Assembly: GCF_019464535.1 (NCBI RefSeq)
Contig: NZ_CP080507.1
Coordinates: 3,150,001 to 3,182,000, forward strand
DNA length: 32,000 nt
Origin: Horticoccus luteus
GTDB taxonomy: Bacteria > Verrucomicrobiota > Verrucomicrobiia > Opitutales > Opitutaceae
Direction of reading: 5' to 3'
The notes under the pieces are model-generated. The model worked only from the letters and a program-made list of their open reading frames with translations. It had not been told where the DNA came from and ran no database searches. Numbering within the stretch: the stretch's first letter is position 1; the number at the start of each line of letters is the position of its first letter. Both the position numbers and the translations under genes were made by a program. Shown in pieces: positions 4,676 to 30,131 of the stretch.

Positions 4676-5224
4676 TTATTTCGCCCCGCGCCACGCCGCG
4701 CGCGCCCGTTGAAACGGCGAGCGCACCGAAGCCGCCACACTCCGCCCACCCGCCGCTGACGCGACGCAAACGGCCCCCGTCTCCACCGCTTTTTCCTGTC
4801 CCTCCAGCCGCGCCTCACGCTCCGCCAGCGCCGCTTCCCGCGCTTGAAGCGCTGCCTCGTGCTCCTGCATCGCCTGGCGATCGTCGCGCAGCGCGGCGCT
4901 CTCCGCTTCCAGAAGCTCCCGCGCGCGATGCAGCTTTTCCCAGCCCGCGCGCAATGCCGCCGCCTCGCCTGGCACATCGGCCGCTGCAAACGGCGCCCGC
5001 GTCGGCGTGACCGCCCCGCGCGGCCCCGCTTCCAGCCGCGCCTGCCACTCCCGAAGCCTCGCTTCGTAGGCGCGCAAATTCTCTTCTCGCACGCGCAACG
5101 CCTCGAGATCCTCCCGCACGAGCAAACGCGCAGCGTCGGTCTCGTGCGCAGCCGACAACGGTGCGGACGACACCTTTCGCGCGAATCTTAACGAACTGGA
5201 AGGCGGCGTGAAAGAGGTGCTCAT
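4676..5224 (-). CDS. Hypothetical coiled-coil protein (Glu/Ala/Leu/Arg-rich)
   Basis: The 182-aa ORF almost exactly fills the gap between deoA and the ABC permease gene. It has heptad-like stretches (EALRVREENLRAYEARLREWQARLE; EAALQAREAALAEREARLEGQEK). GC3 is high but skewed to G-ending codons, unlike the C-ending neighbours. No domain was recognised. Confidence 0.45.
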   Translation of the reverse strand: MSTSFTPPSSSLRFARKVSSAPLSAAHETDAARLLVREDLEALRVREENLRAYEARLREWQARLEAGPRGAVTPTRAPFAAADVPGEAAALRAGWEKLHRARELLEAESAALRDDRQAMQEHEAALQAREAALAEREARLEGQEKAVETGAVCVASAAGGRSVAASVRSPFQRARAAWRGAK

Positions 5225-5340
5225 GGCGACTCGTGCATCCTACCGGATCGCCCCGGCTCCGCCTAGAGGCACGGCCCGGTTTTACCGCGCGTTTACCGTG
5301 CGCCCGTCACCTTTCGTCAAAACTTTACGCCTCGCGCGCC

Positions 5341-6567
5341 TCAACTCCGGAAAATCACGCTCTCGCGATTGAACATCCGCACCGCCACCGCCAGCGCGAC
5401 TCCTGCATAGACACAGGACGATCCGAAGATCAGCGCGATGTAGTGCCAGTGCCAGATCCCGGACAGCATCTCTTTGCACACCAGCGAAAGATTCAACAGC
5501 GGCACCAGCGCGAGTTGCGCATTGAGATCGATGCCCGGCAGCATCCCGATCACCGCCGGCATGATCACCACGATCATCATCGGCGCCACATAGCTTTGCG
5601 CTTCTTTGTAACTCTTCGCGAACAGCGCGACGGTGAAGATCACCGCGGAAAACAACACCGCGACCGGCAGCACCATCGCCAGCACGCCCACCAGCCCCAG
5701 CGGATCGATCATCGGAATCACCGCGTTCGACTTCACCGCCCCCGCCGCCGCCTTCGCACCGGCGCCAGCGAATAACGTGCCCGCCATCATCGCCGTCGTC
5801 CCCAGCGAAAGCAGCATGAAGACCATCGCCGAAATGGAGCCCGTCAGCACCATGAGGAATTTGCCCAGCACAATCTCCACCCGCGCCACCGGACTGCACA
5901 GCAGCGTTTCCATCGTGCCGCGCTCCTTCTCGCCCGCGGTGAGATCGATCGCCGGATACATCGCCCCCGTGAAACACAGGATGATGATGAGATACGGCAC
6001 GATGCCGCCAAACATGTTGCCACCCACTTTCTCCGGCGGCGCCACGTTCTCGCGCTTGAAATCGAACGGCTTCACCAGCGATGCCGGCAGCCCGCGTTCC
6101 TTCAATCGCTCCACCGCCGTCTGATCGCGCAGCGTCCGCAAAAAGTTCTCCACCTCCGACACGCCCAACTGCGACTTCAGCTCACCTTCGTAATAATATA
6201 TCGCCACCGCCGGCGCCTCGCCGCGTTTCAAACCGGCCTCAAAACCCTCCGGCAATTGCACCGCCGCCCGCAGCCTCTTGTCCGTGATCTGCTGCTTCCA
6301 ATCCGGCGCCGCCGGGACGACCTTGAGGCTTTTCGCCGACTTGAATTGCGCCACGACTTCCGGCGAATCTGCGCCGCCGAGCACGGCGATGGCTGGAGTC
6401 TCGGCCCGGGCCTTGTTGATCACGCTCGACGCGATCTTACCCACGCCAAACGTCAGCAACGGGATCACCAGCACCGGGATGATGATCGTCGACAACAACG
6501 TCCGCCGGTCGCGCAGCGCATCGATGAGTTCCTTCCGGTAAACCGTGAAGATGTTGTGGACGTTCAT
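5341..6567 (-). CDS. ABC-2 type exporter permease, NatB-like (N-terminal TM, large external loop, C-terminal 5-TM bundle)
   Basis: I trimmed the start to ATG 6567 ([24 protein letters not shown]), which overlaps the upstream ATPase stop as ATGA. The TAGEKERGTMETLL motif and the topology are typical of NatB-family permeases. The 65-codon N-terminal extension in the ORF track is Arg/Gly-rich and overlaps the ATPase gene. Confidence 0.85.
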   Translation of the reverse strand: MNVHNIFTVYRKELIDALRDRRTLLSTIIIPVLVIPLLTFGVGKIASSVINKARAETPAIAVLGGADSPEVVAQFKSAKSLKVVPAAPDWKQQITDKRLRAAVQLPEGFEAGLKRGEAPAVAIYYYEGELKSQLGVSEVENFLRTLRDQTAVERLKERGLPASLVKPFDFKRENVAPPEKVGGNMFGGIVPYLIIILCFTGAMYPAIDLTAGEKERGTMETLLCSPVARVEIVLGKFLMVLTGSISAMVFMLLSLGTTAMMAGTLFAGAGAKAAAGAVKSNAVIPMIDPLGLVGVLAMVLPVAVLFSAVIFTVALFAKSYKEAQSYVAPMMIVVIMPAVIGMLPGIDLNAQLALVPLLNLSLVCKEMLSGIWHWHYIALIFGSSCVYAGVALAVAVRMFNRESVIFRS

Positions 6568-7307
6568 GCTGCCTCCTCCGTGCCCACGGCTTTGACGAAT
6601 ACTTCCTCCAAATCCTGCTCGCCGTATCGCGTGCGCAACTCCGCCGGCGTCCCCTCCGCGCAAAGTTTGCCGTCGTGGATGATCCCGACCTTGTCGCAGA
6701 GCTTCTCCACCTCGCTCATCACGTGCGTGGAATAGATCACCGTCTTCCCGCGATCCCGGCACTCCCGCACAAATTTCACGATCGCGCGCGCCGTCATTAC
6801 GTCCAGCCCGAGCGTCGGCTCATCGAAAATCATCACCGCCGGATCGTGCACCAGCGTGCGGGCGATTGACGTCTTCTGCTTCATGCCCGTGGAAAACTTA
6901 TCACACCGGCGATCGAGAAATTCATGCATGCCGAGCTGGTCCGCCAGAAGCTGCGTGCGCGCTCGCACCGCCGCGTCCGACAAGCCGTTCAGCCGCCCGA
7001 AATACGCGATCATCTCGCGCGCCGTCAGCCGCGCATATAATGCCGTGCTCGCGCCCAAAAAACCCACGTGCGCCCGCACCTTCGCCGGCTCCGCCAGGAC
7101 ATCGAAACCCGCCACCGTCGCCGTGCCCGCGGTCGGCCGCAGAAGCGTGGCGAGCAGGCGCAGCGTGGTCGTTTTGCCCGCGCCGTTCGCCCCGAGGAGG
7201 CCATAAATGCGGCCGGGCTCGCACGTGAAACTCACGTCATCCACCGCCCGGATCGCCCCGCGCTTTTTGTCGTGGAACACCTTCGAAAGATTGCGGGCGT
7301 TGATCAT
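6564..7307 (-). CDS. ABC transporter ATP-binding protein, NatA-like
   Basis: I trimmed the start to ATG 7307 ([22 protein letters not shown]). Walker A is GANGAGKTT, the signature is FSTGMKQK and Walker B is [11 protein letters not shown], followed by an H-loop STH. ATGA overlaps occur at both ends. Confidence 0.93.
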
Positions 7308-7501
7308 GGGCGGCGCGCCTGGTTTTCTTCGTTCCTCCCGGCCGCGAGCATCGCCGCCGTCACGCCCGTGCCGATCGCGCAACCCATCGCCACGCCCAGC
7401 GACTTGCTGATGGCCCAGCCGATCCCGAGCCCCACCGCGGCGGCGGTCAGCCCCCGCCACCGGCAGCGCACCAGCGTGTTTTTTTGGATGATTCTTTTCA
7501 T
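7304..7501 (-). CDS. 65-aa glycine-zipper membrane microprotein
   Basis: The sequence is [65 protein letters not shown]. It has a basic N-terminus followed by GxxxG/A repeats. The ATG lies 14 nt after the response-regulator stop, and its stop overlaps the ATPase ATG (ATGA). No homology check was possible. Confidence 0.5.
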   Translation of the reverse strand: MKRIIQKNTLVRCRWRGLTAAAVGLGIGWAISKSLGVAMGCAIGTGVTAAMLAAGRNEENQARRP

Positions 7502-7515
7502 GGCAAAGCGGTCGC

Positions 7516-8256
7516 TCACAGACTCATTTTCTCGCGAAATTCCTGCGCCTGCCGGCGGCTGAGCTCGATCTGCGAGCCGCCCTTCAGATGCACCAGCAAA
7601 CCGCCGCTGAACCACGGCTCGATCTTGTCGATCCACGCGAGGTTGATGATCTGCCGCCGGTTGGCGCGGAAAAAATATTTCGGGTCCAGCCGCTCCTCCA
7701 TCGCGTTGAGCGAGCGGAAAAGCTGCGGCTGCGCGCCGTCGAAATGCACCCGGGTGTAATTGCCCTCACTCTCCAGCAAGCGGATCGATTTCACCTCGAC
7801 GAACCAGCAACGATCGCCCTCGCGCACGAACACTTTGTCGTCGGCCGCGAGGCGGTCGCGCGCCGCGCTCTCCGGCGCAGATGTCGCGCCGTCCGCACTC
7901 CCCGCCACCTTTTGCCGCAGCCGCTCGATCGCCGTCGCCAGGCGCGCCGGATCCACCGGTTTCAAGAGGTAGTCGAGCGCGTTGAGCTCAAAGGCCTTGA
8001 CGGCAAACTCATCGTAGGCGGTCGTGAAAATCACGTGCGGCACCGGCGGCTCGAGCGAGGCGAGCAAGTCCATGCCTGTCTCGCCCGGCATCTGCACGTC
8101 GAGAAAAAGCAGTTCCGGCTGCAACGCCGCGAGCTGTTCCCGCGCCTGCTTGCTGTTCGCCGCTTCTCCCACCACGTCCACGTCGGCAAACACGCTCACC
8201 AACCGCTTCAGTTCGTTGCGCGCGAGGCGCTCGTCATCGATGATCAGGGCTTTCAT
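7516..8256 (-). CDS. LytR/AlgR-family response regulator (REC + LytTR DNA-binding domain)
   Basis: The receiver domain shows MKALIIDDERLARNELK and the phospho-acceptor context LLFLDVQMPGETG. The C-terminal LytTR-like segment shows VKSIRLLESEGNYTRVHF, FFRANRRQIINL and LSRRQAQEFR. Confidence 0.93.
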   Translation of the reverse strand: MKALIIDDERLARNELKRLVSVFADVDVVGEAANSKQAREQLAALQPELLFLDVQMPGETGMDLLASLEPPVPHVIFTTAYDEFAVKAFELNALDYLLKPVDPARLATAIERLRQKVAGSADGATSAPESAARDRLAADDKVFVREGDRCWFVEVKSIRLLESEGNYTRVHFDGAQPQLFRSLNAMEERLDPKYFFRANRRQIINLAWIDKIEPWFSGGLLVHLKGGSQIELSRRQAQEFREKMSL

Positions 8257-9386
8257 GCGCGTGAGATCTGGCTGGGCAGGATCACTTCCGCGACGACTTG
8301 CGCAGCGTCATCCGCTCGCAATCGCAGCGAAGCCTTTTCGCCGAAAAACAACCGCAGCCGCTCGGCCGCATTGCGCAACCCCAGCCCCGTCGACCCGCCC
8401 GTCGTGCCGCCCGCTCCCGCCGGACGCAGCTCGCCGGGATTCGTTACGCGCAATCGCAATTGCCCACCGGCGCACGCCGCCTCGATCAGAATCTCGCCGC
8501 CTTCCGGCCGCGGCGAAATGCCGTATTTCACCGCGTTTTCGACCAGCGTCTGGAGCAGCAGCGGGGGAAATGACAACCCCAGCGTCTCCGGCGCGACATC
8601 AAGCCGCACCCGCAGCCGCTCCTCGTGCCGCACCTGCTCCAACGCCAGGTAGTCGTTGACCACCCGCAGCTCGTCCTCAAACGGCACCGACTCGCATTGC
8701 GCCGACTGCAACGAATAGCGCAGCAAGTTCGCGAGTTGCGTCACCGCCAGCCGCGCCCGCGCCGGATCCTCGTCGATCAACGCCCGCAGCGAATTCAACG
8801 CGTTGAAGATGAAATGCGGATTCACCTGCGACTTCAGCGCCCGCAGCTCGGCGTCCTTCACCGTCGCCATCAATTGCAGGCGCTCGATCTCCGACCGGTT
8901 GAAACGATCGAACAACTGGTAGATGAAATAGACGCACATCCAGCCGACGATCAGCACCGTTCCATTGATGACGCTGATCGTGCAGAACAACCAGACGCTG
9001 TGCTTGGATTCCCACGGCAGTTGCAGCGCCCCGTAGGTGTAGCCGTAGCCGATCGCCGTCCAGGCCACCGACAGCAAAAAGGAAAACAGCAACACTCGCG
9101 GCACCAGCGCGCGCCAGCCCAGTTGCTTCCAGCCCCATCGCTTCATTACCACGCGCGCCGCGTGGGTGAGCAACACGCCCAGTGCGACGACCATCACCGT
9201 GATCGCCACGGTGCGCCACGGATCGCCCGCTTCCGACGTCGTGGCGAAGACAAACGAAAACACGAGTTGCAGGACCAGAAAAGCGCCCCATCCAAAAGCC
9301 TGACAGAACACATACAGCCGCTCCTTCTGCCGCTCACGGCGCGCCCCGTCCTGCAACAACACTTCTGTGCGCGTTAAATTTTCCAT
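8253..9386 (-). CDS. LytS/YehU-type sensor histidine kinase (multi-TM N-terminus, His_kinase + HATPase_c)
   Basis: I trimmed the start to ATG 9386 (MENLTRTEVLL). There are 4-6 TM helices with no obvious periplasmic domain. The H-box is VNPHFIFNALNSL, the N-box is LLQTLVENAVKYG and the G-box is TGGSTGLGLRN. Its stop overlaps the regulator ATG (ATGA). Confidence 0.9.
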   Translation of the reverse strand: MENLTRTEVLLQDGARRERQKERLYVFCQAFGWGAFLVLQLVFSFVFATTSEAGDPWRTVAITVMVVALGVLLTHAARVVMKRWGWKQLGWRALVPRVLLFSFLLSVAWTAIGYGYTYGALQLPWESKHSVWLFCTISVINGTVLIVGWMCVYFIYQLFDRFNRSEIERLQLMATVKDAELRALKSQVNPHFIFNALNSLRALIDEDPARARLAVTQLANLLRYSLQSAQCESVPFEDELRVVNDYLALEQVRHEERLRVRLDVAPETLGLSFPPLLLQTLVENAVKYGISPRPEGGEILIEAACAGGQLRLRVTNPGELRPAGAGGTTGGSTGLGLRNAAERLRLFFGEKASLRLRADDAAQVVAEVILPSQISRA

Positions 9387-9486
9387 CGACACCGCCAGCT
9401 TACAACAGCCGCGCCGGCCCAGCGCAAACTTTGGACAAGCGGTTGCGCCACCCTGACGAACGGCGAACGCCTGCGCTCTGCGCGCC

Positions 9487-10182
9487 TCAAGCGCCCGCGG
9501 CGACCAGCACCTTGCGCGCCGGAAAATCCAAATCAAACGGTTCGTCCGCCGCCGGCGCGTGATACGTGCTGATGATCGCATACCGATCCTTGCCCGCCGT
9601 GTTCCGCGTTGAACCGTGCACGAGCCGGTCGGAAAAGATGATGGCGCTCCCGCGTTTGATCGCACACGTCACCACGTCGCCCTCGCGCCAGTCGCCATTG
9701 CTGACCTCGTCTCCAAATTCCCCGTTCGGCAGGCCTTTCTTCACCATCTGCCAGTCGCGTTTGTGACTGCCCGGCACGACCGTCAGCGTTCCGTTCTCCG
9801 CTGCGGCATCGTCGAGCGGGATCCACACCGAAAGTTTCGGCCGCGTGTTGCGCCAATAGAAACAGTCGATGTGCCACGGCGTGGAAAACGTTTTGTCGGC
9901 TGACTTGTAGACCAGCTTGTCGCTCATGAACATCACGCCGTGCGGCATCACTTGCCGCAGCGGTGCAACGAGCCGCGGATCCTCCGCCAGCGCGCGAAAT
10001 GCCGCGCTCGCCACCGCCACGTGCAGAAAAACCGACGCCCCCGGCTTCGCCTTTTCCGCCAGCAGCCGCTGCGCCTCGGTTTTCAATGTGTCGCATTCCT
10101 TGGCACTGAGAAGCTCGGACAAAATCACGAAACCGTCGCGCTCGTAACGCGCCGCGAGATCGGCAGGCAGGTGGGTTTTCAT
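9487..10182 (-). CDS. Fe(II)/2-oxoglutarate dioxygenase, phytanoyl-CoA dioxygenase (PhyH) family
   Basis: The 231-aa protein has the N-terminus YERDGFVILSELLS, the facial triad context TPWHIDCFYW (HxD), LSVWIPLDD, NGTLTVVPGSHK and a distal His in FSDRLVHGSTRN. Confidence 0.85.
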   Translation of the reverse strand: MKTHLPADLAARYERDGFVILSELLSAKECDTLKTEAQRLLAEKAKPGASVFLHVAVASAAFRALAEDPRLVAPLRQVMPHGVMFMSDKLVYKSADKTFSTPWHIDCFYWRNTRPKLSVWIPLDDAAAENGTLTVVPGSHKRDWQMVKKGLPNGEFGDEVSNGDWREGDVVTCAIKRGSAIIFSDRLVHGSTRNTAGKDRYAIISTYHAPAADEPFDLDFPARKVLVAAGA

Positions 10183-20230: not shown

Positions 20231-20950
20231 ATGTCGCTTCGACGGCTCACGTTCGCCGCCTCGGCTGTCGCTGTCGCCTTCGGCCTCGCCGGCTGCGGAT
20301 CACCGCCATCCGGTGGCGGCTTCGTGCGGATCGACAATGTCGCAATGTATGGCCAGCCCCGCACCCCGCGCCCGCCGGTTTTGCAACAGGCCGACGCGGA
20401 TTTCGTCCGCCGGGCCGCCGCGGTTTTTGGCCATGACCGCCAGGCGGCGAGTCTCGCCTGGGCCAATGAAGCCGACCGGTTTTTCCAGCAACGCAACTTC
20501 GACTACGCCATGCGGCGTTACAACCAGGCGTGGCTTCTCGATCCGGAAAATTTCCGCGCCTTCTGGGGCTTTGGCCGCGTCGCCCTCGAACGCGATCGCT
20601 TTGACGAAGCCCTCGAGCATTTCGACAAGGCCCTTTCCCTTTGCCACGATGATCGACAACGCCCCGCGGTGCTTTCCGACACGGGCGCGGCACTCACCTG
20701 GAAGGCCAAGTCGCTTCCGCGCGAAAACGGCGCAGAACGCGACCGCCTTTTCGCCCGCGCTAACGCAATGTTTGCCGACAGCACGCAACGCGATCCCACC
20801 TACGCCAACGGCTGGAAACGCTGGGCCATGTCGCTTTTCGACCAGGGGGACTTGGCGGGAGCCCGCGAGAAAATCCTTCGCGCCCAAACCGCCGGCGCCG
20901 ACATCCCGGCGACACTCCTCGCCCGACTGACAGCGGCAAAATCTCCATGA
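20231..20950 (+). CDS. TPR-repeat lipoprotein
   Basis: The signal peptide carries a lipobox (AVAFGLAGC GSPP). TPR-like repeats are present (ADRFFQQRNFDYAMRRYNQAWLLDPENFRAFWGFGRVALERDRFDEALEHFDKAL). The gene starts 3 nt after the ruvB stop. Confidence 0.75.
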   Translation: MSLRRLTFAASAVAVAFGLAGCGSPPSGGGFVRIDNVAMYGQPRTPRPPVLQQADADFVRRAAAVFGHDRQAASLAWANEADRFFQQRNFDYAMRRYNQAWLLDPENFRAFWGFGRVALERDRFDEALEHFDKALSLCHDDRQRPAVLSDTGAALTWKAKSLPRENGAERDRLFARANAMFADSTQRDPTYANGWKRWAMSLFDQGDLAGAREKILRAQTAGADIPATLLARLTAAKSP

Positions 20951-22524
20951 GGCTGGATTTTCTCGACGGTCGGTCGCCGGGATTGTGGTTCGCCCTCCGG
21001 TCGCGCTTTCGCGCGCTTCTCCTGCTCGCTGCTCTCGGCCTCTACGTCTTCTTTCTCGCCTGGTATGTTTCGCCCTACGCCGGCGGCGCCGATTCCTCCG
21101 GTTACCTCAACAGCGCGCAACTCCTCCTCCACGGCCGGCTCACCGCCACCGCGCGCGTGCCCGCCGGTTTTCCCGCCGACCATTTCCGCCGCGAAGCCTT
21201 CATCCCCGTCGCGTTTATTCCCGGCCCTGACAGCGCGGAGATGGTCCCCACCTACCCGCTCGGACTGCCGCTGCACTACGCCGCCGTCGGACGCTGGACC
21301 GGTTTGGACGCCGCGCCCGTCGTTCTCAACATCCTCACGGCGCTCGCGGTCATCGCCCTCCTGTATCGGATTGCCCGTGACGTCGGCGTCCATCCTCGTC
21401 CGGCCGCCGCGCTTACCGCTCTTTTCGCGCTGTCGCCGTTGACGCTCTACTACGCGTTGCAGCCGATGAGCGATCTCGTTGCGACCGCGTGGACGCTGGT
21501 CGCCATCCTCGGCGCTTGGCGCAGCCCGCGCCACGTTGGCTGGGCCGCGCTCGCCGCGCTGGCGGTCACCGTCGCGGTATTTGTGCGTCCCGCCAATGCG
21601 CTTCTCCTGCTGCCCGTCGCTTTCGGCCTCGGCCTTGCGTGGCGTCGCTGGCTGGTCTTCGCCTGGTGCGGTTTGCCCGGCGCGCTGGCGTGGGCCGCCT
21701 TCAATCGCCACCTCTACGGCTCAGCTCTGGCCACCGGTTATGGCAACATCGCCGACACGCTGCGCTGGTCCTACATCGGCCCCACGCTCGCCCACTTCGC
21801 CAAATGGATCCCGGTCGTGTTAACGCCCGCCGTCGCCCTCTTCCTGCTGCTGCCCGCCGCGCGAGCTTCCGTTCGCGCCAAGCGGCTGCTCGGCGTTTGG
21901 GCCAGCGCGTTCGTGCTGTTTTACTCCGCCTACTATTTCAGCCACGAAACGTGGTGGTATCTGCGCTTCCTGCTGCCCGCGATGCCGGCGCTCCTCATCG
22001 GCGCGGCGCTCGTGTGGCAACAGTGGCCCGCGCCCGCCCTCACCCTCGCGCTCGAAGGCTCGGTGCAGACCTCGCGCCGTTGGCAAAGCGCGCGGTGCCT
22101 GCGCGTGCCACTCACGACGTTCTTCTTTATCGCCGCCCTCGTCTGGCAAATCGCCTGGGGCTGGCACTTTCAAGTGCATAAGATCGAACTCGGCGAACGC
22201 CCCTATCGCGAGGTTGCGCGCTGGGTCCAGCAATCCCTTCCGCCCCACGCCGTCCTCGTCGCCGGCCAGGTCAGCGGCGCAGTTTTTCATTACAGCGATC
22301 GTCCCTTCGTGCAATGGAGCGAAGTGACGCCCGTGAACTACGCCGCGCTCAACGACTATCTGCGCACGAACCGCGGCGAGCTCTACGCCGGCTTGTTCAA
22401 CTACGAAGAACAACCCGCCTTCGCAACGCATCTGCCCGGCACATGGCAACGCGTGCAGCAATTCGGCCCCATCTCCATCTGGCGGCGCACCAGTCTCGCT
22501 CCCTCCGCCGCCGCGCGAAACTAG
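20947..22524 (+). CDS. GT-C fold membrane glycosyltransferase (ArnT/PMT, family 39/83-like)
   Basis: The 525-aa protein has about 10 or more TM helices followed by a soluble C-terminal domain. The first-loop acidic motif is GGADSSGYLNSAQ, placed as in GT-C enzymes. The start overlaps the TPR gene stop (ATGA). Family assignment rests on topology and motif only. Confidence 0.6.
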   Translation: MRLDFLDGRSPGLWFALRSRFRALLLLAALGLYVFFLAWYVSPYAGGADSSGYLNSAQLLLHGRLTATARVPAGFPADHFRREAFIPVAFIPGPDSAEMVPTYPLGLPLHYAAVGRWTGLDAAPVVLNILTALAVIALLYRIARDVGVHPRPAAALTALFALSPLTLYYALQPMSDLVATAWTLVAILGAWRSPRHVGWAALAALAVTVAVFVRPANALLLLPVAFGLGLAWRRWLVFAWCGLPGALAWAAFNRHLYGSALATGYGNIADTLRWSYIGPTLAHFAKWIPVVLTPAVALFLLLPAARASVRAKRLLGVWASAFVLFYSAYYFSHETWWYLRFLLPAMPALLIGAALVWQQWPAPALTLALEGSVQTSRRWQSARCLRVPLTTFFFIAALVWQIAWGWHFQVHKIELGERPYREVARWVQQSLPPHAVLVAGQVSGAVFHYSDRPFVQWSEVTPVNYAALNDYLRTNRGELYAGLFNYEEQPAFATHLPGTWQRVQQFGPISIWRRTSLAPSAAARN

Positions 22525-22742
22525 CGCGCCGAATTTTTCCCTTGGCTCCGCCGGCCGCCGCGCGTCTTATGGTCCGACGTCGCTAACGTTCTGCCGCGCT
22601 CAACTCTGCAGCGCAGGCCAACGACCATCGTTGTGACGCCAATTGCGCCGGACTTTCCGGTGCGCCGCAGGTTTTCGCCTCCGGTCTCTGTCAACTGCAT
22701 CTCGTGCCGACTCAGCCCCGATGCGTAACCCACTGTTCTTGC

Positions 22743-24077
22743 ATGTCTCTTTTTCCTGAGTCCTCCCTGCCGCGCATCGGCATGGTTTCAACCCACGGCT
22801 ATGTCGCCGCCGAGCCGCCGCTCGGCGCGGCCGACACGGGCGGTCAGGTTGTTTACGTTCTCGAGCTCGCCCGCAAGCTCGGCCAACTCGGCTTCGAAGT
22901 CGATATCTGGACCCGCCGCTTCGAGGACCAACCGGAGATCGATGTGATGACCGAGCGCGTCCGCGTCATCCGCATCCCCTGTGGCGGCCGCGATTTCATC
23001 GGCAAGGAATACCTGCAGCGCCACCTCGATGAATGGGCCGAGCGCGCCCTGCGCTTCATCCACCTTCACCGCCTGAACTATCACTTTTTCAACAGTCACT
23101 ACTGGGACGCCGGCTGCGCCACCCAACGCCTCGCCGAGGCGCTCGACGTGCCGCACGTGCACACGCCCCACTCGCTCGGCGTCTGGAAAAAGCAGCTCAT
23201 GGAGCGCGATTTCCCCACTGATGCGGAGAACTTCGAGCAGAAATACAATTTCGCCGAACGCATCCGGCAGGAGACGCTCCTTTACCGCACGTGCGACGTC
23301 GTCGTCGCCACCACGCCGCCCCAACTCGACATGCTCGTGCACGACTACGGTGCGCCGGCCGGCCAGGTCCACATGATCCCGCCCGGCTACGACGACAACC
23401 GCTACTATCCCGTCAGCGCCGCCTCCCGCACGTCGATCCGCCAGCGTCTCGGCTTTGAAGGCAAGGTCGTCCTCGCGCTCGGCCGTCTCGCGCGTAACAA
23501 GGGCTACGATCTCCTGCTCGAAGCGTTCACCCTTGTCGCGAGCCGCATCCCCGACGCCCGTCTGCATCTCGCCGCGGGCGGCATGGAAATCAGCAGTGAC
23601 GAACGCGCCTTGCTGCAGGAGCTCAAGGAACTCGCGGTGCGCCTTAACATCGACGACCGCGTTACGTGGGGCACCTACATCGCCGATTCCGAACTCGCGG
23701 ACTATTACCGCGCCGCGGATGTGTTCGTTTTGAGCAGCCGTTACGAACCGTTCGGCATGACCGCCATCGAGGCCATGGCCTGCGGCACGCCCGCCGTCAT
23801 CACGACCCACGGCGGCCTCTTTCGCGCCGTCACGTTCGGCCGGCATGCGCTCTACGCCGACACCTTTGATCGCGAGGATCTCGGCATCTCCATCGTCAAA
23901 ATCCTGCGGCATCCCGGCCTCGCGTTGCGACTCTCGCGCATGGGCGCGCACAAGGCCCGCAGCTTGTTCACGTGGACCGGCATCGCCCAGCAACTCATCA
24001 GCCTCGTCGAAGAACGCCCCACACCCCAGGCCTTTGCCGACAACGAATGGGACGAACCGTGGAACGACGGCGATTGA
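22743..24077 (+). CDS. Sucrose-phosphate synthase-like GT4 glycosyltransferase (SPS; a mannosylfructose-phosphate synthase-type specificity cannot be excluded)
   Basis: I trimmed the start to ATG 22743. The hallmark SPS N-terminus is IGMVSTHGYVAAEPPLGAADTGGQVVYVLELARKLG. Also present are HSHYWDAG, PHVHTPHSLG and the C-terminal GT-B motif EPFGMTAIEAMACGTP. It has a GT domain only (444 aa). Confidence 0.85.
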   Translation: MSLFPESSLPRIGMVSTHGYVAAEPPLGAADTGGQVVYVLELARKLGQLGFEVDIWTRRFEDQPEIDVMTERVRVIRIPCGGRDFIGKEYLQRHLDEWAERALRFIHLHRLNYHFFNSHYWDAGCATQRLAEALDVPHVHTPHSLGVWKKQLMERDFPTDAENFEQKYNFAERIRQETLLYRTCDVVVATTPPQLDMLVHDYGAPAGQVHMIPPGYDDNRYYPVSAASRTSIRQRLGFEGKVVLALGRLARNKGYDLLLEAFTLVASRIPDARLHLAAGGMEISSDERALLQELKELAVRLNIDDRVTWGTYIADSELADYYRAADVFVLSSRYEPFGMTAIEAMACGTPAVITTHGGLFRAVTFGRHALYADTFDREDLGISIVKILRHPGLALRLSRMGAHKARSLFTWTGIAQQLISLVEERPTPQAFADNEWDEPWNDGD

Positions 24078-24126
24078 ACCTCCTCCAACTCCGAACCCAC
24101 CCGGCCCACCGCGGTCGACTTTCCCG

Positions 24127-26226
24127 ATGCCCGACACCCAGTCCATTCGTCTTTTCAGCAGCGATCTCGATAACACCCTCCTCGGGAATCCGGAATCGAC
24201 CCGTCGCTTCAAACTCGCCTGGGAAGGCATTCCCGCCGCGCAACGCCCCCTCCTCGTCTATAATAGCGGCCGCCTGCTCAGCGACCTCGACCAACTCCTC
24301 GGAGCCGAGCAACTCCCCGCGCCCGACTATCTGATCGGCGGCGTCGGCACGCAGATCTACGACGCGCGCGCCGGCCGTGCGCTCCACGATTTCGATGGCG
24401 AACTCGCCCTCGGCTGGGATCGCGACCGCGTGGCCGCCATCGCCGCAGCGTTTCCCGGCGTCCGGCCGCAGCCCAACCAATACCAGCATCCCTTCAAGTC
24501 GAGTTGGTATCTTGAACGCGCCAATCGCGCCACGATCACCCGCCTCTCCGATCAATTCACTGCCGCCGGCCTCGACGTGAGCATCGTTTACTCCAGCCTG
24601 CGCGACCTCGACATTCTCCCGAAAAACGCCGCCAAAGGCGCCGCGCTCCGCTGGCTGTGTCAACGCCTCGACCTTACCCTCGACCGCGTGCTCGTCGCCG
24701 GCGACACCGGCAACGACAGCAGCATGTTTCTTCTGCCCGGCGTGCGCGGCATCGTCGTCGAAAACGCCCAACCCGAACTCTTCGAGGACGTCGTCGAAAT
24801 TCCCGTTTACTGCAGCCGCCAGGTCATGGCCGACGGCGTCGTCGACGGCTTGCGCCACTACGGCGTCATCGCCCAATCGCCCCTCGTCCGCGACACCGTC
24901 CACGCCGCGCGCTCGTCCCGCGGCGCCTTCAAGATGCTTTTCACCGGCACCCGCCTCGGCTCGCTCGGCCCCGACGACCAGGCGTTTCTCCGCCTCGCCT
25001 ACGAAAAAGCGCTCGCAGCCCTCCGCCGCAACATCACGCCCCTCGGCTTCTCCGCCTGCTCGCTCGCCGACAACACCGTCACCGGCACCGATGCCAACTA
25101 CCGCAGCGTCTGGGCGCGCGATGGCAGCATCACGCTCATCAACACCCTCGACGTCGATGATGACGACATCCGTTCCGCCGGTCGCCGCACCCTCGATACG
25201 CTTCTCCGCGCCATCGCCGTCAACGGCCAGATTCCCGCCAACGTCCGCCTCGACGACGGCGTGCCGGATTACGCCGGCGTCGGCAATATCTGCTCCATCG
25301 ACAGCGGCCTGTGGGTCATCATCGCGTTCTACAACTACGTCGAGAAGACCGGCGATCTCGACTTTCTGCGCACGCACGCCGCCCGACTCCAGCGCGCAAT
25401 GGACTGGATCAGCGCGCACGACAGTAACAACGACGGCCTCCTCGAAATCCCCGAAGCCGGCGACTGGACCGATCTCTTCGGCCGCAGTTACAACGTCCTC
25501 TACGACGAGGTCCTGTGGTTTCGCGCCAACGTCTGCTTCGGCCGCTTGCTGGAGTTTCAAGGCGAATACGAACGCGCCAGCGACTACCTCCGCTGGTCGC
25601 AACACATCCGCGGCCGCGTGATCGACACCTTCTGGCCGCACACGCGCCCCGCCGCCAACCTCCCCGAAACCGCGAACCGTTTCGCCGAACGCCAGTTCAG
25701 CCTCGGCGACACCCAATACCTCATCGCCGAAGTCACCCCGTTCGCCTTCAACTGGCGCTGCGACGTCTTCGGCAACGTGCTCGGGTTTCTCATGAACCTC
25801 CTCGACATCGAGCGCGCGCGCACCGCCTTCCGCTTCATGTGGAGCGTCGGCGTCAACGAACCTTACCCCGTCGCGAACCTCTATCCCGTCGTGCAATCCG
25901 GCGATCCCGACTGGCGCGCCTACTATACCGTCAACCTCCTCAACCTCCCCCATCACTACCACAACGGCGGCATCTGGCCGTTCGTCGGCGGCATGTGGGT
26001 GCGCTTCATTCACCGCCTCGGCCTCCATGAGGTCGCCGAACGCGAACTCCTCCGCCTCGCCAAACTGAACCAACTCGGCCGGCGCGACGAATGGGAGTTC
26101 AACGAGTGGGCGCACGGCGTCACCGGCCGCCCGATGGGCAAAGCCTACCAGGCCTGGTCCGCCGCGTCGTTCGTCCGCGCCTGCCAGGAAATCGAAGCCG
26201 ACCCCGACCATCTCGCCGATGAGTGA
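24127..26226 (+). CDS. Bifunctional-architecture protein: N-terminal sucrose-6-phosphate phosphatase (HAD-IIB, S6PP-like) fused to a C-terminal GH100-like alkaline/neutral invertase (six-hairpin glycosidase) domain
   Basis: I trimmed the start to ATG 24127. Residues 1-250 show SSDLDNTLLG (DxDxT), PDYLIGGVGTQIY, HPFKSSWY, DLDILPKNAAKGAAL, VAGDTGNDSSMF and GIVVENAQPEL, collinear with cyanobacterial SPP. Residues ~270-699 show ANYRSVWARDGS, GQIPANV, IDSGLWVIIAFYNY, EAGDWTDLFGRSYNVLYDEVLWF, HHYHNGGIWPFVGG and KAYQAWSAASF, collinear with GH100 invertases. The reading frame is uninterrupted. Confidence 0.85.
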   Translation: MPDTQSIRLFSSDLDNTLLGNPESTRRFKLAWEGIPAAQRPLLVYNSGRLLSDLDQLLGAEQLPAPDYLIGGVGTQIYDARAGRALHDFDGELALGWDRDRVAAIAAAFPGVRPQPNQYQHPFKSSWYLERANRATITRLSDQFTAAGLDVSIVYSSLRDLDILPKNAAKGAALRWLCQRLDLTLDRVLVAGDTGNDSSMFLLPGVRGIVVENAQPELFEDVVEIPVYCSRQVMADGVVDGLRHYGVIAQSPLVRDTVHAARSSRGAFKMLFTGTRLGSLGPDDQAFLRLAYEKALAALRRNITPLGFSACSLADNTVTGTDANYRSVWARDGSITLINTLDVDDDDIRSAGRRTLDTLLRAIAVNGQIPANVRLDDGVPDYAGVGNICSIDSGLWVIIAFYNYVEKTGDLDFLRTHAARLQRAMDWISAHDSNNDGLLEIPEAGDWTDLFGRSYNVLYDEVLWFRANVCFGRLLEFQGEYERASDYLRWSQHIRGRVIDTFWPHTRPAANLPETANRFAERQFSLGDTQYLIAEVTPFAFNWRCDVFGNVLGFLMNLLDIERARTAFRFMWSVGVNEPYPVANLYPVVQSGDPDWRAYYTVNLLNLPHHYHNGGIWPFVGGMWVRFIHRLGLHEVAERELLRLAKLNQLGRRDEWEFNEWAHGVTGRPMGKAYQAWSAASFVRACQEIEADPDHLADE

Positions 26227-27139
26227 TCCTTCTCCGACGACAAATCCGGCGCCCGCGGGCGCCGGACGGCGCGCGCTCTGCTTCGGCGAAATTCTCTGGG
26301 ACTTTCTCCCCGACGGTCTCTTCCCCGGCGGCGCACCGTTCAACGTCGCCTATCACCTTCACCGCCTCGGCCTCACAACATATCCCGTCTCATCCGTGGG
26401 CGACGATGTGCTCGGCCGCGAATTGTTGCGCCGGTTGCGTGACTGGAAAATCCCTGTCGACCTCATCGCCACCGATCCCGCGCGCCCCACCGGCTACGTC
26501 CGCGCCGCAATCACCGCGACCGGCGATGCGCACTACGATATTGTCCGCGACGTCGCGTGGGATGCCATCCCCGCGCCCACCGCGGCGCTGGCTCTCGCCG
26601 CCTCGACCGACGTGCTCGTCTTCGGTTCGCTCGCGGCGCGCTCCCCCGAAAACCGCGCGACCCTGCATCGCCTGCTCGCTGCGCTCCCGGCCACCGCGTG
26701 GCGCGTCTTCGACATCAATCTGCGCGCGCCCTTCGATGATCTCGCCGTCGTCGCCGAACTCGCCGCGCACGCCACCGTTTTAAAACTCAATGCCGCCGAA
26801 GCCGCCCGCCTCGCCGGTGCCACCGAGTCTCCCGGCTCCGAAGAAACGCACGCGCGCAACGTGCAGCAGCGGTTCGCCGTTCCGCTCGTCGTGGTCACCG
26901 CCGCCGACCGCGGCGCCGGCCTCCTGCGCGACGACCATTGGCACTGGGAAACAGCCCGCCCGGTCGCGGTTGCAGACACCGTCGGGGCCGGCGATGCATT
27001 TCTCGCTCGCCTGATCGCCGGCCTGCTGGCGCGCGCCAGCGAGCCCCGGATTCTCGCCGCCGCTTGCCGCCTGGGCGAATGGGTCGCCGCTCAACGTGGC
27101 GCCACTCCCGCCTACACCTCCGCAACGCCCTCCGCATAA
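26219..27139 (+). CDS. PfkB-family sugar kinase, fructokinase-like
   Basis: Motifs are LCFGEILWDFLPDGLFPGGAPFNVAYHL (the typical fructokinase N-terminus) and the PfkB signature 2, DTVGAGDAFLARLIAG. It overlaps the upstream gene by 8 nt. Confidence 0.85.
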   Translation: MSDPSPTTNPAPAGAGRRALCFGEILWDFLPDGLFPGGAPFNVAYHLHRLGLTTYPVSSVGDDVLGRELLRRLRDWKIPVDLIATDPARPTGYVRAAITATGDAHYDIVRDVAWDAIPAPTAALALAASTDVLVFGSLAARSPENRATLHRLLAALPATAWRVFDINLRAPFDDLAVVAELAAHATVLKLNAAEAARLAGATESPGSEETHARNVQQRFAVPLVVVTAADRGAGLLRDDHWHWETARPVAVADTVGAGDAFLARLIAGLLARASEPRILAAACRLGEWVAAQRGATPAYTSATPSA

Positions 27140-27145
27140 ATTTAT

Positions 27146-27754
27146 ATGAACCTGTCATCCCTTCACCTCGAACACTTCGAACAATACCTCCCGCGTCTGC
27201 TGGCCGCCCTGCCGGTCGCACTTCTCGTCATCCTCGGCGCCCTCGCGTTGAGCTTTGTCGTCAACCGCGCCCTCACGCTTCTCTCGAACAAAACGAGTCT
27301 CTCGCACGAAAATGTTGCGCCCTTCCGCAAGATTATGCGCGTGCTCATCGCGATCGCCGCCCTCGTGCTCATTTTGAATGTCTTCGGCTTCAGCCTCGGC
27401 GGCTTGTGGACGATTCTCTCCACCGTGCTCGCGATGGTCGCCATCGGCTTCGTCGCGGTCTGGAGCGTGCTGAGCAACACCCTCTGCACGTTCATCATTC
27501 TGCTTTCGCGCCCATTCGCGATTGGCGACGAGGTCGGATTCGCCGGCGAGGACGTCAAGGGCCGCGTTGAAGACATGAATTTCATCTACACCACGCTGCG
27601 GTGCGATGACGGCAGTTTGCTCCAGATTCCCAACAATCTGTTCTTCCAACGCGTCGTCCGGCGCCGCCCGTCCTCCGCCCCGGTGTCGCTCGAAACCCAG
27701 CTCAATCGTCCCGCCCTGCAACGCACGCCCGCGCCATCCCCAGCTCGCGGCTGA
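27146..27754 (+). CDS. Small-conductance mechanosensitive channel (MscS family), short form
   Basis: The 202-aa protein has three TM helices. The pore helix and beta-domain start read AMVAIGFVAVWSVLSNTLCTFIILLSRPFAIGDEVGFAGEDVKGRVEDMNFIYTTLRCDDGSLLQIPNNLFF. The gene starts 7 nt after the kinase stop. Confidence 0.85.
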   Translation: MNLSSLHLEHFEQYLPRLLAALPVALLVILGALALSFVVNRALTLLSNKTSLSHENVAPFRKIMRVLIAIAALVLILNVFGFSLGGLWTILSTVLAMVAIGFVAVWSVLSNTLCTFIILLSRPFAIGDEVGFAGEDVKGRVEDMNFIYTTLRCDDGSLLQIPNNLFFQRVVRRRPSSAPVSLETQLNRPALQRTPAPSPARG

Positions 27755-28334: not shown

Positions 28335-30131
28335 ATGACGACCCCCTACCGCTTCCTCGCTCTGTTGGTCGCGAGCGCTTCGCTCGCCTTTGCTGCGCAA
28401 CCCGCCTGGGTGCAAACATCCAACCAAAACGCGGTGCCCGTCCTCGAGTATCTGGGCCGCTACGCCCCGGAATACGGTTCCGATCTCGGCCTCGAACAAT
28501 ACGACCCGGAGGTCACCGATCTCAAACCGCGCGTCTATGAACGCAGTCTCGCCGATGCCGAGATTCTCCTCGCCGCACTCAAGGCCAAAATCCCGCCGGA
28601 AACCAACGCCAAGGTCCGCCAGGATCTGGAGATTCTGGTCGATAACGTCGAACTCCAGATCAACTCCTCCCGGCTCAATCACGAGCTGATGCTGCCCTAC
28701 ACCTGCGTCGCCCAAAATGTCTTCGAGGGCCTGCAAGTGCTGCTCGACTCGCGCAACAAGCCCGAGCGCCGTCAGCGCGCCCTTGTCCGTCTCCAACACT
28801 ATGCGGGCCTCGCCGGCGCCGAACCCCTCGTCACGCTCGCCGAGGCGCGCAGCACCGAACGCTTCACCACGAAAAATCTCACCGGGCCCTACGTCGTCGC
28901 GGTGAACAAGGATCTCGGCAACACCGAGCGCTTCATCGCCGGCATCGCCCAACTTTTCACCGCCGCGCAACTCGACGGCTGGCAGGACGCCCACGCCCGA
29001 CTCGCCGCCCAGCTCCGCGCGCACGACGAATGGGTGCGCCGCGAAATCATCCCGCGCGCCCGCCCGACCAACCAACTCCCCGCGGCCATCTACGCCGACA
29101 ACCTCAAGAACTACGGCGTCAGAATGTCGCCGCAGGAACTCATCGACCGCGGCCTGTTTGGCTTCCTTGAAATTCGCGACGAGATGCAGGTTCTCGCGCA
29201 ACGCATCGCCACCGCTCACCATTTTCCTTCCAGCGATTATCGCGCCGTGCTGCGCGAGTTGAAGAAAGACCAGATCACCGGCGCCGCGATTCTGCCCTAT
29301 TACCACGACATCCTCACCCAGCTTGAACACCTCGTCGCCGAGCACCACATCGTCACCCTGCCCCAGCGCGCCGCCGTGATCCGCCTCGCCTCGGAGGCCG
29401 AGTCCGCCTCGCAACCCGCCCCTCATCTCAATCCGCCCCGTCTCCTCGGCAACACCGGCGAATACGGTGAAATCGTCCTCCCTCTCACCAATCCCAATGC
29501 CGCCCACCCCGGCGAACTGCAGGACGATTTCACCACCAAGGCCTACGCGTGGACGCTTACCGCGCACGAAGCCCGCCCCGGCCACGAATTGCAATTTTCC
29601 GCCATGGTCGAGCAAGGCGTCTCCACGCCCCGCGCCGTATTCGCGTTCAACAGCGCCAACGTCGAAGGCTGGGCGCTCTACATGGAAGCCGTGATGAAAC
29701 AATACGAGCCACCCGAAGGGCAGCTCTTCGCCCTGCAAGCCCGCCTCCACCGCGCCGCCCGCGCCTTTCTCGACCCGATGCTCAACCTCGGCCTCATGAA
29801 GCCTGAGGCGGCGCAGCAATTTCTCGTTTCGGACGTCGGTCTCTCCGCGCCCTTCGCCACACAGGAGATCGACCGTTACACCTTCCGCGCTCCGGGCCAG
29901 GCCACGTCGTATTACTACGGCTACCTGCGCCTGCGCCAGATTCGCGCCCAGACTGAACTCGTCCTTCGCGACCGCTTCAACGAAATGGCCTTCCACGACT
30001 TCATCTTGAGCCAGGGCCTGCTGCCGCCGGAACTATTGGCCAAGGCCGTGCGCGAAGAGTTCATCCCCGCGGCGGCGGCCCCGGCGGAGTCAGCACCTGA
30101 CGCCGATCATCCAGCCGCGAAGCAAATGTAG
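28335..30131 (+). CDS. Secreted DUF885-family protein (putative metallopeptidase-like)
   Basis: The signal peptide is MTTPYRFLALLVASASLAFAAQP. The family-typical motif HEARPGHELQF (HExxPGHxxQ) and the ~600-aa length match DUF885 proteins. Confidence 0.8.
   Translation: MTTPYRFLALLVASASLAFAAQPAWVQTSNQNAVPVLEYLGRYAPEYGSDLGLEQYDPEVTDLKPRVYERSLADAEILLAALKAKIPPETNAKVRQDLEILVDNVELQINSSRLNHELMLPYTCVAQNVFEGLQVLLDSRNKPERRQRALVRLQHYAGLAGAEPLVTLAEARSTERFTTKNLTGPYVVAVNKDLGNTERFIAGIAQLFTAAQLDGWQDAHARLAAQLRAHDEWVRREIIPRARPTNQLPAAIYADNLKNYGVRMSPQELIDRGLFGFLEIRDEMQVLAQRIATAHHFPSSDYRAVLRELKKDQITGAAILPYYHDILTQLEHLVAEHHIVTLPQRAAVIRLASEAESASQPAPHLNPPRLLGNTGEYGEIVLPLTNPNAAHPGELQDDFTTKAYAWTLTAHEARPGHELQFSAMVEQGVSTPRAVFAFNSANVEGWALYMEAVMKQYEPPEGQLFALQARLHRAARAFLDPMLNLGLMKPEAAQQFLVSDVGLSAPFATQEIDRYTFRAPGQATSYYYGYLRLRQIRAQTELVLRDRFNEMAFHDFILSQGLLPPELLAKAVREEFIPAAAAPAESAPDADHPAAKQM

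Follow-up and report, generated by a model that had tools for sequence, protein, structure and literature searches.

We have analyzed a window of 32,000 nucleotides from the genome of Horticoccus luteus (Opitutaceae, Verrucomicrobiota; contig NZ_CP080507.1, positions 3,150,001 to 3,182,000 of the forward strand). It contains a gene, spp-GH, that codes in one continuous frame for an N-terminal domain of the sucrose-phosphate phosphatase (SPP) type and a C-terminal domain similar to glycoside hydrolase (GH) family GH100. An initial annotation of this DNA, made from the sequence alone, had proposed that both are parts of one polypeptide encoded within a cluster together with a sucrose-phosphate synthase (SPS) and a fructokinase. 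The profile, fold and catalytic-residue evidence presented here bears out that proposal. The gene and its parts are listed below in window coordinates.

24127-26226, plus strand: fusion gene spp-GH, 699 codons followed by TGA, a frame without internal stop
24148-24864, plus strand: HAD-IIB/S6PP domain, residues 8-246 (Pfam S6PP, PF05116, 222 bits, cut-off 20.3)
24865-24927, plus strand: interdomain linker, residues ~247-267, poorly conserved in sequence
24928-26223, plus strand: predicted GH100-like (alpha/alpha)6 hydrolase, residues ~268-699 (Pfam, family profile and AlphaFold2 (AF2) fold)
24934-24936, plus strand: in-frame ATG, codon 270, on the N-terminal border of the hydrolase domain
25120-25122, plus strand: D332 (in WARDG), predicted 'fixer' Asp of subsite -1, aligned to the 'RD' of InvA/InvB
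25471-25473, plus strand: D449 (in GDWTD), predicted general acid, equivalent to InvA Asp188 in HMMER alignments
26104-26106, plus strand: E660 (in EFNEW), predicted general base, equivalent to InvA Glu414 and InvB Glu415 in HMMER alignments

The fusion gene and its two domains

Residues 1-260 have only one strong relative in the Protein Data Bank (PDB), the SPP of Synechocystis (1s2o, 1.5e-29; the next match was at 1.7e-7), with which the DLDNT, (S/T)GR, KG and GDxGND motifs could be aligned. All the HAD motifs are common to both proteins (in the window protein motif I is D13-L-D15-N-T, II is S47, III is K170 and IV is D193/D197), and they were kept in 75-78 of the 77-78 fused homologues. Thus, the claim that the first ~250 residues carry every catalytic motif of HAD-IIB/S6PP enzymes holds. 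The domain scored 51.9 bits against the NCBIfam model TIGR01484 for HAD-SF-IIB, above the cut-off of 41.8, and it was modelled with a predicted local distance difference test score (pLDDT) of ~85-95 in the first full-length AF2 model. We conclude that it is a HAD-IIB domain of the sucrose-6F-phosphate phosphatase type, predicted to be competent from its intact motifs. It differs from the Synechocystis enzyme, a stand-alone protein of ~245 aa, in bearing a C-terminal hydrolase of 430 aa, and also in scoring under the NCBIfam cut-off for the SPP equivalog (TIGR01485, 156 against 183.65; for TIGR01482 the values were 82 and 107).

The two halves were also searched separately with Pfam profiles. 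The C-terminal half matched Glyco_hydro_100 (PF12899) with 61.3 bits (cut-off 23.6), ahead of GDE_C (38) and MGH1-like (29), both likewise over their thresholds; the match was split in two stretches, the best of which covers residues 529-686 only. As a single sequence, the domain recovered the invertase InvA at 5e-13. A profile was built from an alignment of 34 diverse family members, and this retrieved the GH100 structures InvB (5z73, 4e-34), InvA (5goo, 1e-33) and Arabidopsis CINV1/NIN2 (6ttj, 1.4e-27), with 405 of 415 positions covered. The next families were much more distant: GH78 at 3e-14 (partial), GH176 (7vma) at 4.5e-11 and the GH63-type GgH at 1.7e-8. The loops of the hydrolase were poor in the first full-length AF2 model (pLDDT 69.5), whose interdomain geometry is not trustworthy. 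We re-modelled the domain by itself with the alignment of 34 members, and the resulting model (pLDDT 91.5, predicted TM-score 0.92) was compared with the PDB by Foldseek. The top 28 matches were all GH100 enzymes, with TM-scores of 0.71-0.79 and identities of 20-22%, followed by the GH63 enzymes GgH and MgH at ~0.6. For reference, plant alkaline/neutral invertases (A/N-invertases) are ~55% identical to the Anabaena template 5GOR (PMC5796173). GDE_C/GH133, GH176, GH63 and GH78 were rejected as assignments for the domain, all of them being far weaker than GH100 in both profile and fold searches.

Five residues at subsite -1 are common to the enzymes of clan GH-G, namely the acid Asp, the base Glu, the 'fixer' Asp and a pair of platform Trp; at subsite +1 these enzymes differ (bioRxiv 10.64898/2026.07.01.735942). 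In InvA the proposed catalytic pair is Asp188 and Glu414 (PMC6995568) and the platform residues are W376 and W434 (bioRxiv 10.64898/2026.07.01.735942). In the HMMER alignments, the predicted acid, base and fixer of the window protein (D449, E660 and D332) correspond to those of GH100, and the predicted platform residues W617 (HNGGIWP) and W677 (QAWS) fall on W376 and W434. None of the five residues varied in the 81 sequences from 80 species loci, nor in the 34 diverse family members used for the profile. The remaining motifs of GH100 are collinear as well (NY..x.RD, xVDSxxW, the loop of the acid Asp, YHNGGxWP, the base Glu and QxWS), and the proposed collinearity of the C-terminal part with A/N-invertases stands. 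Besides, the predicted structure is a single-domain (alpha/alpha)6 barrel, as in GH100. Altogether, four of the five structural and catalytic features of GH100 that could be tested were found in the domain, which from sequence and model appears to be a deep-branching GH100-like clade and is predicted, with its catalytic residues intact, to be an active hydrolase. It is also the more conserved half of the protein, with a mean column identity of 0.855 against 0.72 for the N-domain among close homologues, and cross-phylum identities of 61-76% against 40-64%.

The frame from 24127 to 26226 is truly coding, as indicated by the pattern of GC by codon position (0.67/0.44/0.85 at positions 1/2/3; GC at the third position, GC3, 0.846). 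Its translation runs unbroken to the TGA, and the motifs quoted in the initial annotation were all located in it: DLDNT at residue 13, AAKG at 168, GDTGND at 192, NYRSVWARDG at 324, GQIPANV at 367, SIDSGLW at 390, GDWTD at 445 and HNGGIWP at 612. The product was 100% identical to the database entry 'HAD-IIB family hydrolase [Horticoccus luteus]' in a homology search. Since the G+C content of the window is 65%, long open reading frames (ORFs) arise in it by chance. One of 781 aa on the minus strand (23998-26343) spans the whole fusion gene, with GC values by position (0.82/0.47/0.67) that mirror those of the sense frame, and was discarded as a high-GC shadow ORF. A longer sense ORF of 793 aa from the ATG at 23845 was rejected too: the GC by position of the extension is non-coding, it overlaps the sps gene in another frame and the database protein begins at 24127.

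The linker region varies in sequence and hardly in length. Windows 247-289 and 250-290, which extend into the N-terminal extension of the hydrolase, were 8-35% identical to the sequences of other phyla, and the mean column identity of this region among close homologues was 0.60. The length of segment 246-290 is nearly constant, 41-44 aa in 73 of 81 sequences. Residues 260-276 had a pLDDT below 50 in the full-length AF2 model. Here lies the in-frame ATG at 24934, from which a separate expression of the hydrolase part had been suggested. Its position at the domain junction is as described, and the stand-alone relatives at two loci, L075 and L079, start near it. However, the codon is not conserved: Met270 is a Met in 26 of the 59 sequences without a gap at this position in the alignment (22 others are gapped) and in 57% of 120 close homologues, so we rejected separate expression as a conserved feature. 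We looked for a Shine-Dalgarno-like motif before this ATG and found none; the real start lacks one as well. The 'LF' motif that follows (residues 271-272) was considered as an interdomain latch specific of the fusion and was dismissed, being also N-terminal in the stand-alone proteins of L075 and L079.

It is extremely improbable that the cell contains two proteins instead of one, be it through a sequencing or assembly frameshift or through separate translation of the hydrolase from ATG 24934. What speaks for this is that the ATG lies exactly where the stand-alone homologues start and that separate genes are found at two loci. On the other side, more than 120 independent clusters of ~700-aa homologues came out of the first homology search, with identities of at least 68% and every one with both domains, and because so many independent proteins share the architecture an assembly frameshift can be ruled out. 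A stop or frameshift separating two genes is equally unsupported by the genome scan described below, in which independent assemblies from ~8 phyla have one continuous frame at 77 of 80 loci. The poor conservation of Met270 and the coding-like GC3, maintained throughout the linker, point in the same direction.

Public names cover one half of the protein each, 'HAD-IIB family hydrolase' at NCBI, 'sucrose-6F-phosphate phosphohydrolase' at JGI and 'beta-fructofuranosidase' in UniRef. The latter is the wrong mechanism for a GH100-like alpha-glucosidase.

Gene neighbourhood, distribution and variants

The fusion gene lies in a compact group of genes with the following features.

22512-22537, plus strand: terminator-like hairpin (22512-22528) and T-run, a consensus match only, closing the upstream gene
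22704-24077, plus strand: SPS-like GT4 glycosyltransferase gene (sps), 457 aa from GTG 22704 (alternative start at ATG 22743), with Pfam Glycos_transf_1, Glyco_transf_4 and GT-B_Sucrose_synth
26219-27139, plus strand: PfkB sugar kinase gene (pfkB), fructokinase-like, Pfam PfkB 130 bits; its ATG overlaps the fusion stop by 8 nt
27146-27754, plus strand: gene for a small MscS-like protein of 202 aa, Pfam MS_channel_2nd 53.7 bits as sole domain match

Therefore an SPS-like synthase and a fructokinase-like kinase do flank the fusion, as had been annotated. The spacings between sps, spp-GH, pfkB and the mscS-like gene are 49 nt, -8 nt (the overlap reads ATGAGTGA) and 6 nt. The four tightly spaced genes form an operon-like unit, and we infer that they are co-transcribed. 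A leader of ~180 nt separates sps from the terminator-like hairpin, and no Rfam element was detected in it. The best PDB match of the glycosyltransferase was the SPS of T. elongatus (TeSPS, 6kih, 1.9e-51), with MshA (3c48, 6e-49) at a nearly equal score and the SPS of H. orenii (2r60, 8e-39) behind. Its HSLG, EPFG and DTGGQ motifs align to His158, Glu331 and Gln51 of TeSPS. The last of these residues contacts the fructose hydroxyls, whereas MshA has GGM at this place. Against the NCBIfam model TIGR02472 (sucr_P_syn_N) the protein scored 190.7, below the cut-off of 576. The kinase had as best PDB match a fructokinase (2qhp, 1.7e-39), and its score against the NCBIfam fructokinase model was 83.6, below the cut-off of 450. 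Homologues of the MscS-like protein were found in the same cluster at five other loci (L002, L005, L012, L021 and L034).

Relatives of the fusion were searched in a genome scan with one genome per species, which gave at least 599 genomes with a relative, and the best 80 loci were examined. The S6PP and GH domains were in a single ORF in 77 of them, spread over ~8 phyla. The exceptions are L030, truncated by the end of the contig, and L075 and L079, where separate GH, SPP and SPS genes are neighbours. An SPS-like GT4 gene adjoins in 73 of the 80 loci and a PfkB gene in 22. In Verrucomicrobiota, Planctomycetota and Acidobacteriota the SPS-like gene is located upstream, in Bacteroidota and Chloroflexota downstream. 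Among the carriers are Opitutaceae and other Verrucomicrobiota, Phycisphaeraceae and Planctomycetaceae, Holophagaceae and Chloracidobacterium, Anaerolineae and Ardenticatenaceae, Polyangiaceae, Saprospiraceae and Lewinellaceae, one spirochaete and one Vulcanimicrobiota bin, as well as many cultured Flavobacteriaceae (Polaribacter, Mariniflexile, Tamlana, Algibacter, Gaetbulibacter and others). Cultured carriers such as Oleiharenicola, Polaribacter, Mariniflexile, Tamlana and Algibacter are found at loci L015 and L051-L073. The initial annotation stated that no characterised enzyme with this architecture was known. Our full-text literature searches found no paper describing a bacterial SPP-GH100 fusion or its biochemistry, and to this extent the statement stands, but the architecture itself is common.

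In some very distant bins the hydrolase domain was 59-72% identical to that of the window over the best segment: L017 (labelled Gammaproteobacteria), L033 (Chloracidobacterium), L075 (Candidatus Nealsonbacteria) and L043 (Vulcanimicrobiota). Strong constraint, horizontal transfer or mis-binning would account for such identities. At three loci an extra stand-alone S6PP-like gene is found beside the fusion (L019, 3092-3988; L045, 7488-8261; L078, 7281-8066), which may mean that the two phosphatases are redundant or that they share the work.

A search with the C-domain only produced 1037 clusters (50% identity) at E values up to 1e-3. Most of them are stand-alone proteins of ~400-440 aa with 28-45% identity to the domain; JGI names such stand-alone relatives 'glycogen debranching enzyme'. 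There were also divergent S6PP and GH fusions (P0122 with 57% identity and P0125 with 51%) and fusions to other partners, a GH domain followed by a PfkB sugar kinase in P0249 (L081, 1789-3981) and a P-loop domain similar to PRK/uridine kinase followed by a GH domain in P0256 (L085, 2702-4894). No SPS gene was seen near these two within their short contigs. Among the stand-alone members the context is mixed: P0136 adjoins an ABC sugar importer and P0133 has no sugar genes nearby. For this reason the wider family, predicted from sequence to consist of alpha-glucosidases in several settings, is not uniformly tied to sucrose synthesis. The tie to SPS and SPP belongs to the clade with ~60% identity or more.

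Two kinds of variants have lost one of the catalytic sites. In two metagenome-assembled genomes of Phycisphaeraceae, the fusion ORFs (L028, region 6001-7284, ORF at 5170-7299, and L041, region 6001-7248, ORF at 5005-7263) have 'SNLDST' and 'CNLDAT' in the place of DLDNT, and 'GSSAND' in the place of GDTGND, so that the HAD nucleophile (now Asn) and one Asp of motif IV (now Ser) are lost while all the GH catalytic residues are intact. No SPS-like gene was found in the flanks of ~5-6 kb of these loci. From their sequences, they look like cases of a dead SPP-like domain retained on a live hydrolase. The converse is found in two metagenomic contigs. P0154 (L089, 974-3073) and P0223 (L088, 2523-4490), which matched the window domain by BLASTP at 2e-68 and 2e-53, have intact HAD motifs, but their GH-like part no longer has the acid Asp or either platform Trp, and P0223 is without the base Glu too. 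An SPS-like gene starts 1 nt after P0154. By their residues these would be SPPs with a pseudo-GH100 domain. A structural or regulatory role of the domain pair is hinted at by the retention of the scaffold after the loss of one or the other catalytic site.

A predicted cycle of sucrose synthesis and breakdown

The neighbourhood of SPS and PfkB genes, the split GH, SPP and SPS genes of L075 and L079, and the independent fusion of GH to PfkB in P0249 support a link of the clade to sucrose. We consider it fairly probable that the window encodes an ion-gated cycle, making and breaking sucrose through a bifunctional cytoplasmic enzyme, that tunes a compatible-solute pool. The SPS-like glycosyltransferase would make sucrose-6F-phosphate and the N-terminal HAD-IIB domain would dephosphorylate it to sucrose. 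The C-terminal domain, acting as an inverting alpha-glucosidase, would split sucrose to yield glucose plus fructose, and the PfkB kinase would turn the fructose into fructose-6-P, the acceptor of SPS. The four genes, including the mscS-like one, would then be an osmoadaptation unit that builds and removes sucrose, and the size of the pool would be set by the balance between synthesis and hydrolysis. An ungated cycle would be futile, burning a sugar nucleotide and ATP, and because of this the hydrolase half is expected to be gated, most likely through inhibition by a high intracellular ionic strength. Under salt or drought stress sucrose would accumulate, and upon dilution it would be degraded. 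The fusion would enforce a 1:1 stoichiometry and the co-localisation of the opposing activities. We infer here sucrose as the substrate, as well as the direction of the regulation and its dependence on ions.

There is precedent for parts of this scheme. The Synechococcus PCC 7002 operon spsA-sppA-frkA-amsA combines synthesis, consumption and fructose recycling in one transcription unit and has been interpreted as osmoprotective 'sucrose homeostasis' (PMC11046441). It holds SPS, SPP, a sucrose consumer and a fructokinase, as the window is predicted to, so the co-encoding of sucrose synthesis and breakdown is already known. However, sucrose is consumed there by a GH13 amylosucrase, with the glucosyl unit stored in glucan, and all the proteins are separate, whereas in the window a GH100-like hydrolase is covalently fused to SPP and an mscS-like gene is added. 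Halotolerant methanotrophs have a cluster similar to spsA-sppA-frkA-amsA. The presence of an MscS-like channel gene fits an osmotic role, since it would be part of a compatible-solute operon. In Synechocystis the pairs Sps/Inv and GgpS/GghA set the solute level by opposing synthesis and hydrolysis, with hydrolases that are inhibited by ions; the sucrose level depends on synthesis by Sps and degradation by the invertase, the activity of which drops to half at 75 mM NaCl and to ~15% at 145 mM (PMC6753628). These enzymes are unlinked and separate, unlike those of the window. In the planctomycete Rhodopirellula baltica, sucrose is one of the main osmolytes (PMC3694870). HAD phosphatases fused within the same pathway are found in the bidomain SPS-SPP proteins and in the GgpS-GgpP proteins of heterotrophic bacteria (PMC6753628; TIGR02471 'sucr_syn_bact_C'). 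Those fusions join consecutive biosynthetic steps, whereas the window protein would link the end of biosynthesis to the start of catabolism, a logic closer to that of PFK-2/FBPase-2 or RelA/SpoT. This covalent SPP-invertase architecture, and its breadth in heterotrophic bacteria, appear to be undescribed.

Several observations weigh against a gated sucrose cycle as the function of the cluster. SPS, SPP and fructokinase are all under their NCBIfam equivalog cut-offs. The GH100-like domain is only 20-22% identical to characterised invertases and lacks an equivalent of InvB Arg430, reported to assist the catalytic Glu; this residue sits in a three-residue insertion missing in the whole clade (InvB 'GKQARKYQTW' aligns to 'GK---AYQAW'). 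The scan for sigma-70-like promoters detected none in the ~180-nt leader. The ion gating of the fusion hydrolase, the most likely form of control, is proposed by analogy with the Synechocystis enzymes. Finally, the lineages with one dead domain suggest that the scaffold does more than two independent catalyses.

The architecture might instead serve another chemistry, the pathway making a different phosphorylated fructoside or glucoside, or the hydrolase cleaving another alpha-glucoside (a sucrose isomer, glucosylsucrose or a kojibiose-type linkage) or mainly transglycosylating. We think this unlikely. The identity of ~21% to characterised GH100 enzymes would leave room for it, as would the lack of an Arg430 equivalent, the complete difference at subsite +1 among clan GH-G enzymes that are common at subsite -1, and the stand-alone family members in non-sucrose contexts. 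Since the partner enzymes are below the equivalog cut-offs, with the glycosyltransferase scoring MshA as well as SPS, the disaccharide could be a different one, such as mannosylfructose. A mannosylfructose pathway exists in Agrobacterium, with MfpsA and MfppA. On the other hand, the closest relatives are all sucrose enzymes (SPS 6kih, SPP 1s2o, InvA/InvB and fructokinase 2qhp), the glycosyltransferase bears the fructose-contacting GGQ motif, and the independent fusion and linkage of GH domains to a fructokinase-like kinase argues for fructose as a product. We regard it as distinctly more doubtful that the GH-like domain is mainly non-hydrolytic, a sucrose-binding sensor or an oligomerisation scaffold for the phosphatase, with negligible hydrolysis in vivo. 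P0154 and P0223 would be examples of it, with their HAD motifs kept and their GH sites lost, P0154 still beside an SPS-like gene; the Phycisphaeraceae proteins provide the converse. The conserved length and variable sequence of the interdomain segment would also agree, and GH100 enzymes form hexamers (PMC5796173). Nevertheless, none of the catalytic and subsite -1 residues varies among the window protein and 80 relatives, and the GH domain is the more conserved half, the pattern of an active enzyme and not of a pseudo-enzyme. The non-catalytic sensor mentioned in the initial annotation is therefore disfavoured for the window protein.

A bolder version of the sucrose cycle is a self-contained 'osmostat', in which ionic strength, or sucrose or sucrose-6-P bound in one domain and acting on the other, would couple the two opposing sites reciprocally by allostery. 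We put it forward only tentatively and hold it to be rather unlikely. The two-domain scaffold itself would then be the regulatory device, which would explain its retention after the death of one site, both in the dead-phosphatase Phycisphaeraceae and in the dead-hydrolase P0154 and P0223. PFK-2/FBPase-2 and RelA/SpoT are analogues with opposing activities on one polypeptide. As a corollary, GH100-type sucrose cycling would be ancient and widespread in heterotrophic bacteria and not a speciality of cyanobacteria and plants.

If the gated sucrose cycle is correct, one polypeptide with the last synthetic and the first degradative step would be a compact system in which to study how a cell avoids a futile cycle and sets its solute pool. 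Sucrose would be an osmolyte synthesised and turned over by many soil and marine heterotrophs, including cultured Flavobacteriaceae. A/N-invertases have been said to occur only in cyanobacteria and plants (PMC6753628) or only in cyanobacteria and proteobacteria (PMC10661998), while the clade described here, distinguished from GH100 invertases by its fusion to an SPP domain and by the missing insertion, occurs in heterotrophic phyla described as lacking them. GH100-type invertases would thus be widespread in Verrucomicrobiota, Planctomycetota, Acidobacteriota, Chloroflexota, Myxococcota, Bacteroidota and Spirochaetota, changing the picture of the origin of sucrose metabolism and of the plant cytosolic invertases.

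Remaining genes of the window

The genes at both sides of the cluster have no evident link to it. Upstream, 20947-22524 (plus strand) codes for a polytopic membrane protein of 525 aa with a weak GT-C/Alg9-like match (19.5 bits, below the cut-off). Downstream, 28335-30131 (plus strand) codes for a DUF885 protein (287 bits) whose N-terminus resembles a signal peptide by eye. Further away, on the minus strand (5341-9665), there is an ordinary group unrelated to the fusion, formed by a LytTR-type response regulator (7516-8256), a sensor with a His_kinase domain (8253-9665) and an ABC-2 exporter pair (5341-7460). The remainder of the window consists of ordinary housekeeping and transport genes.

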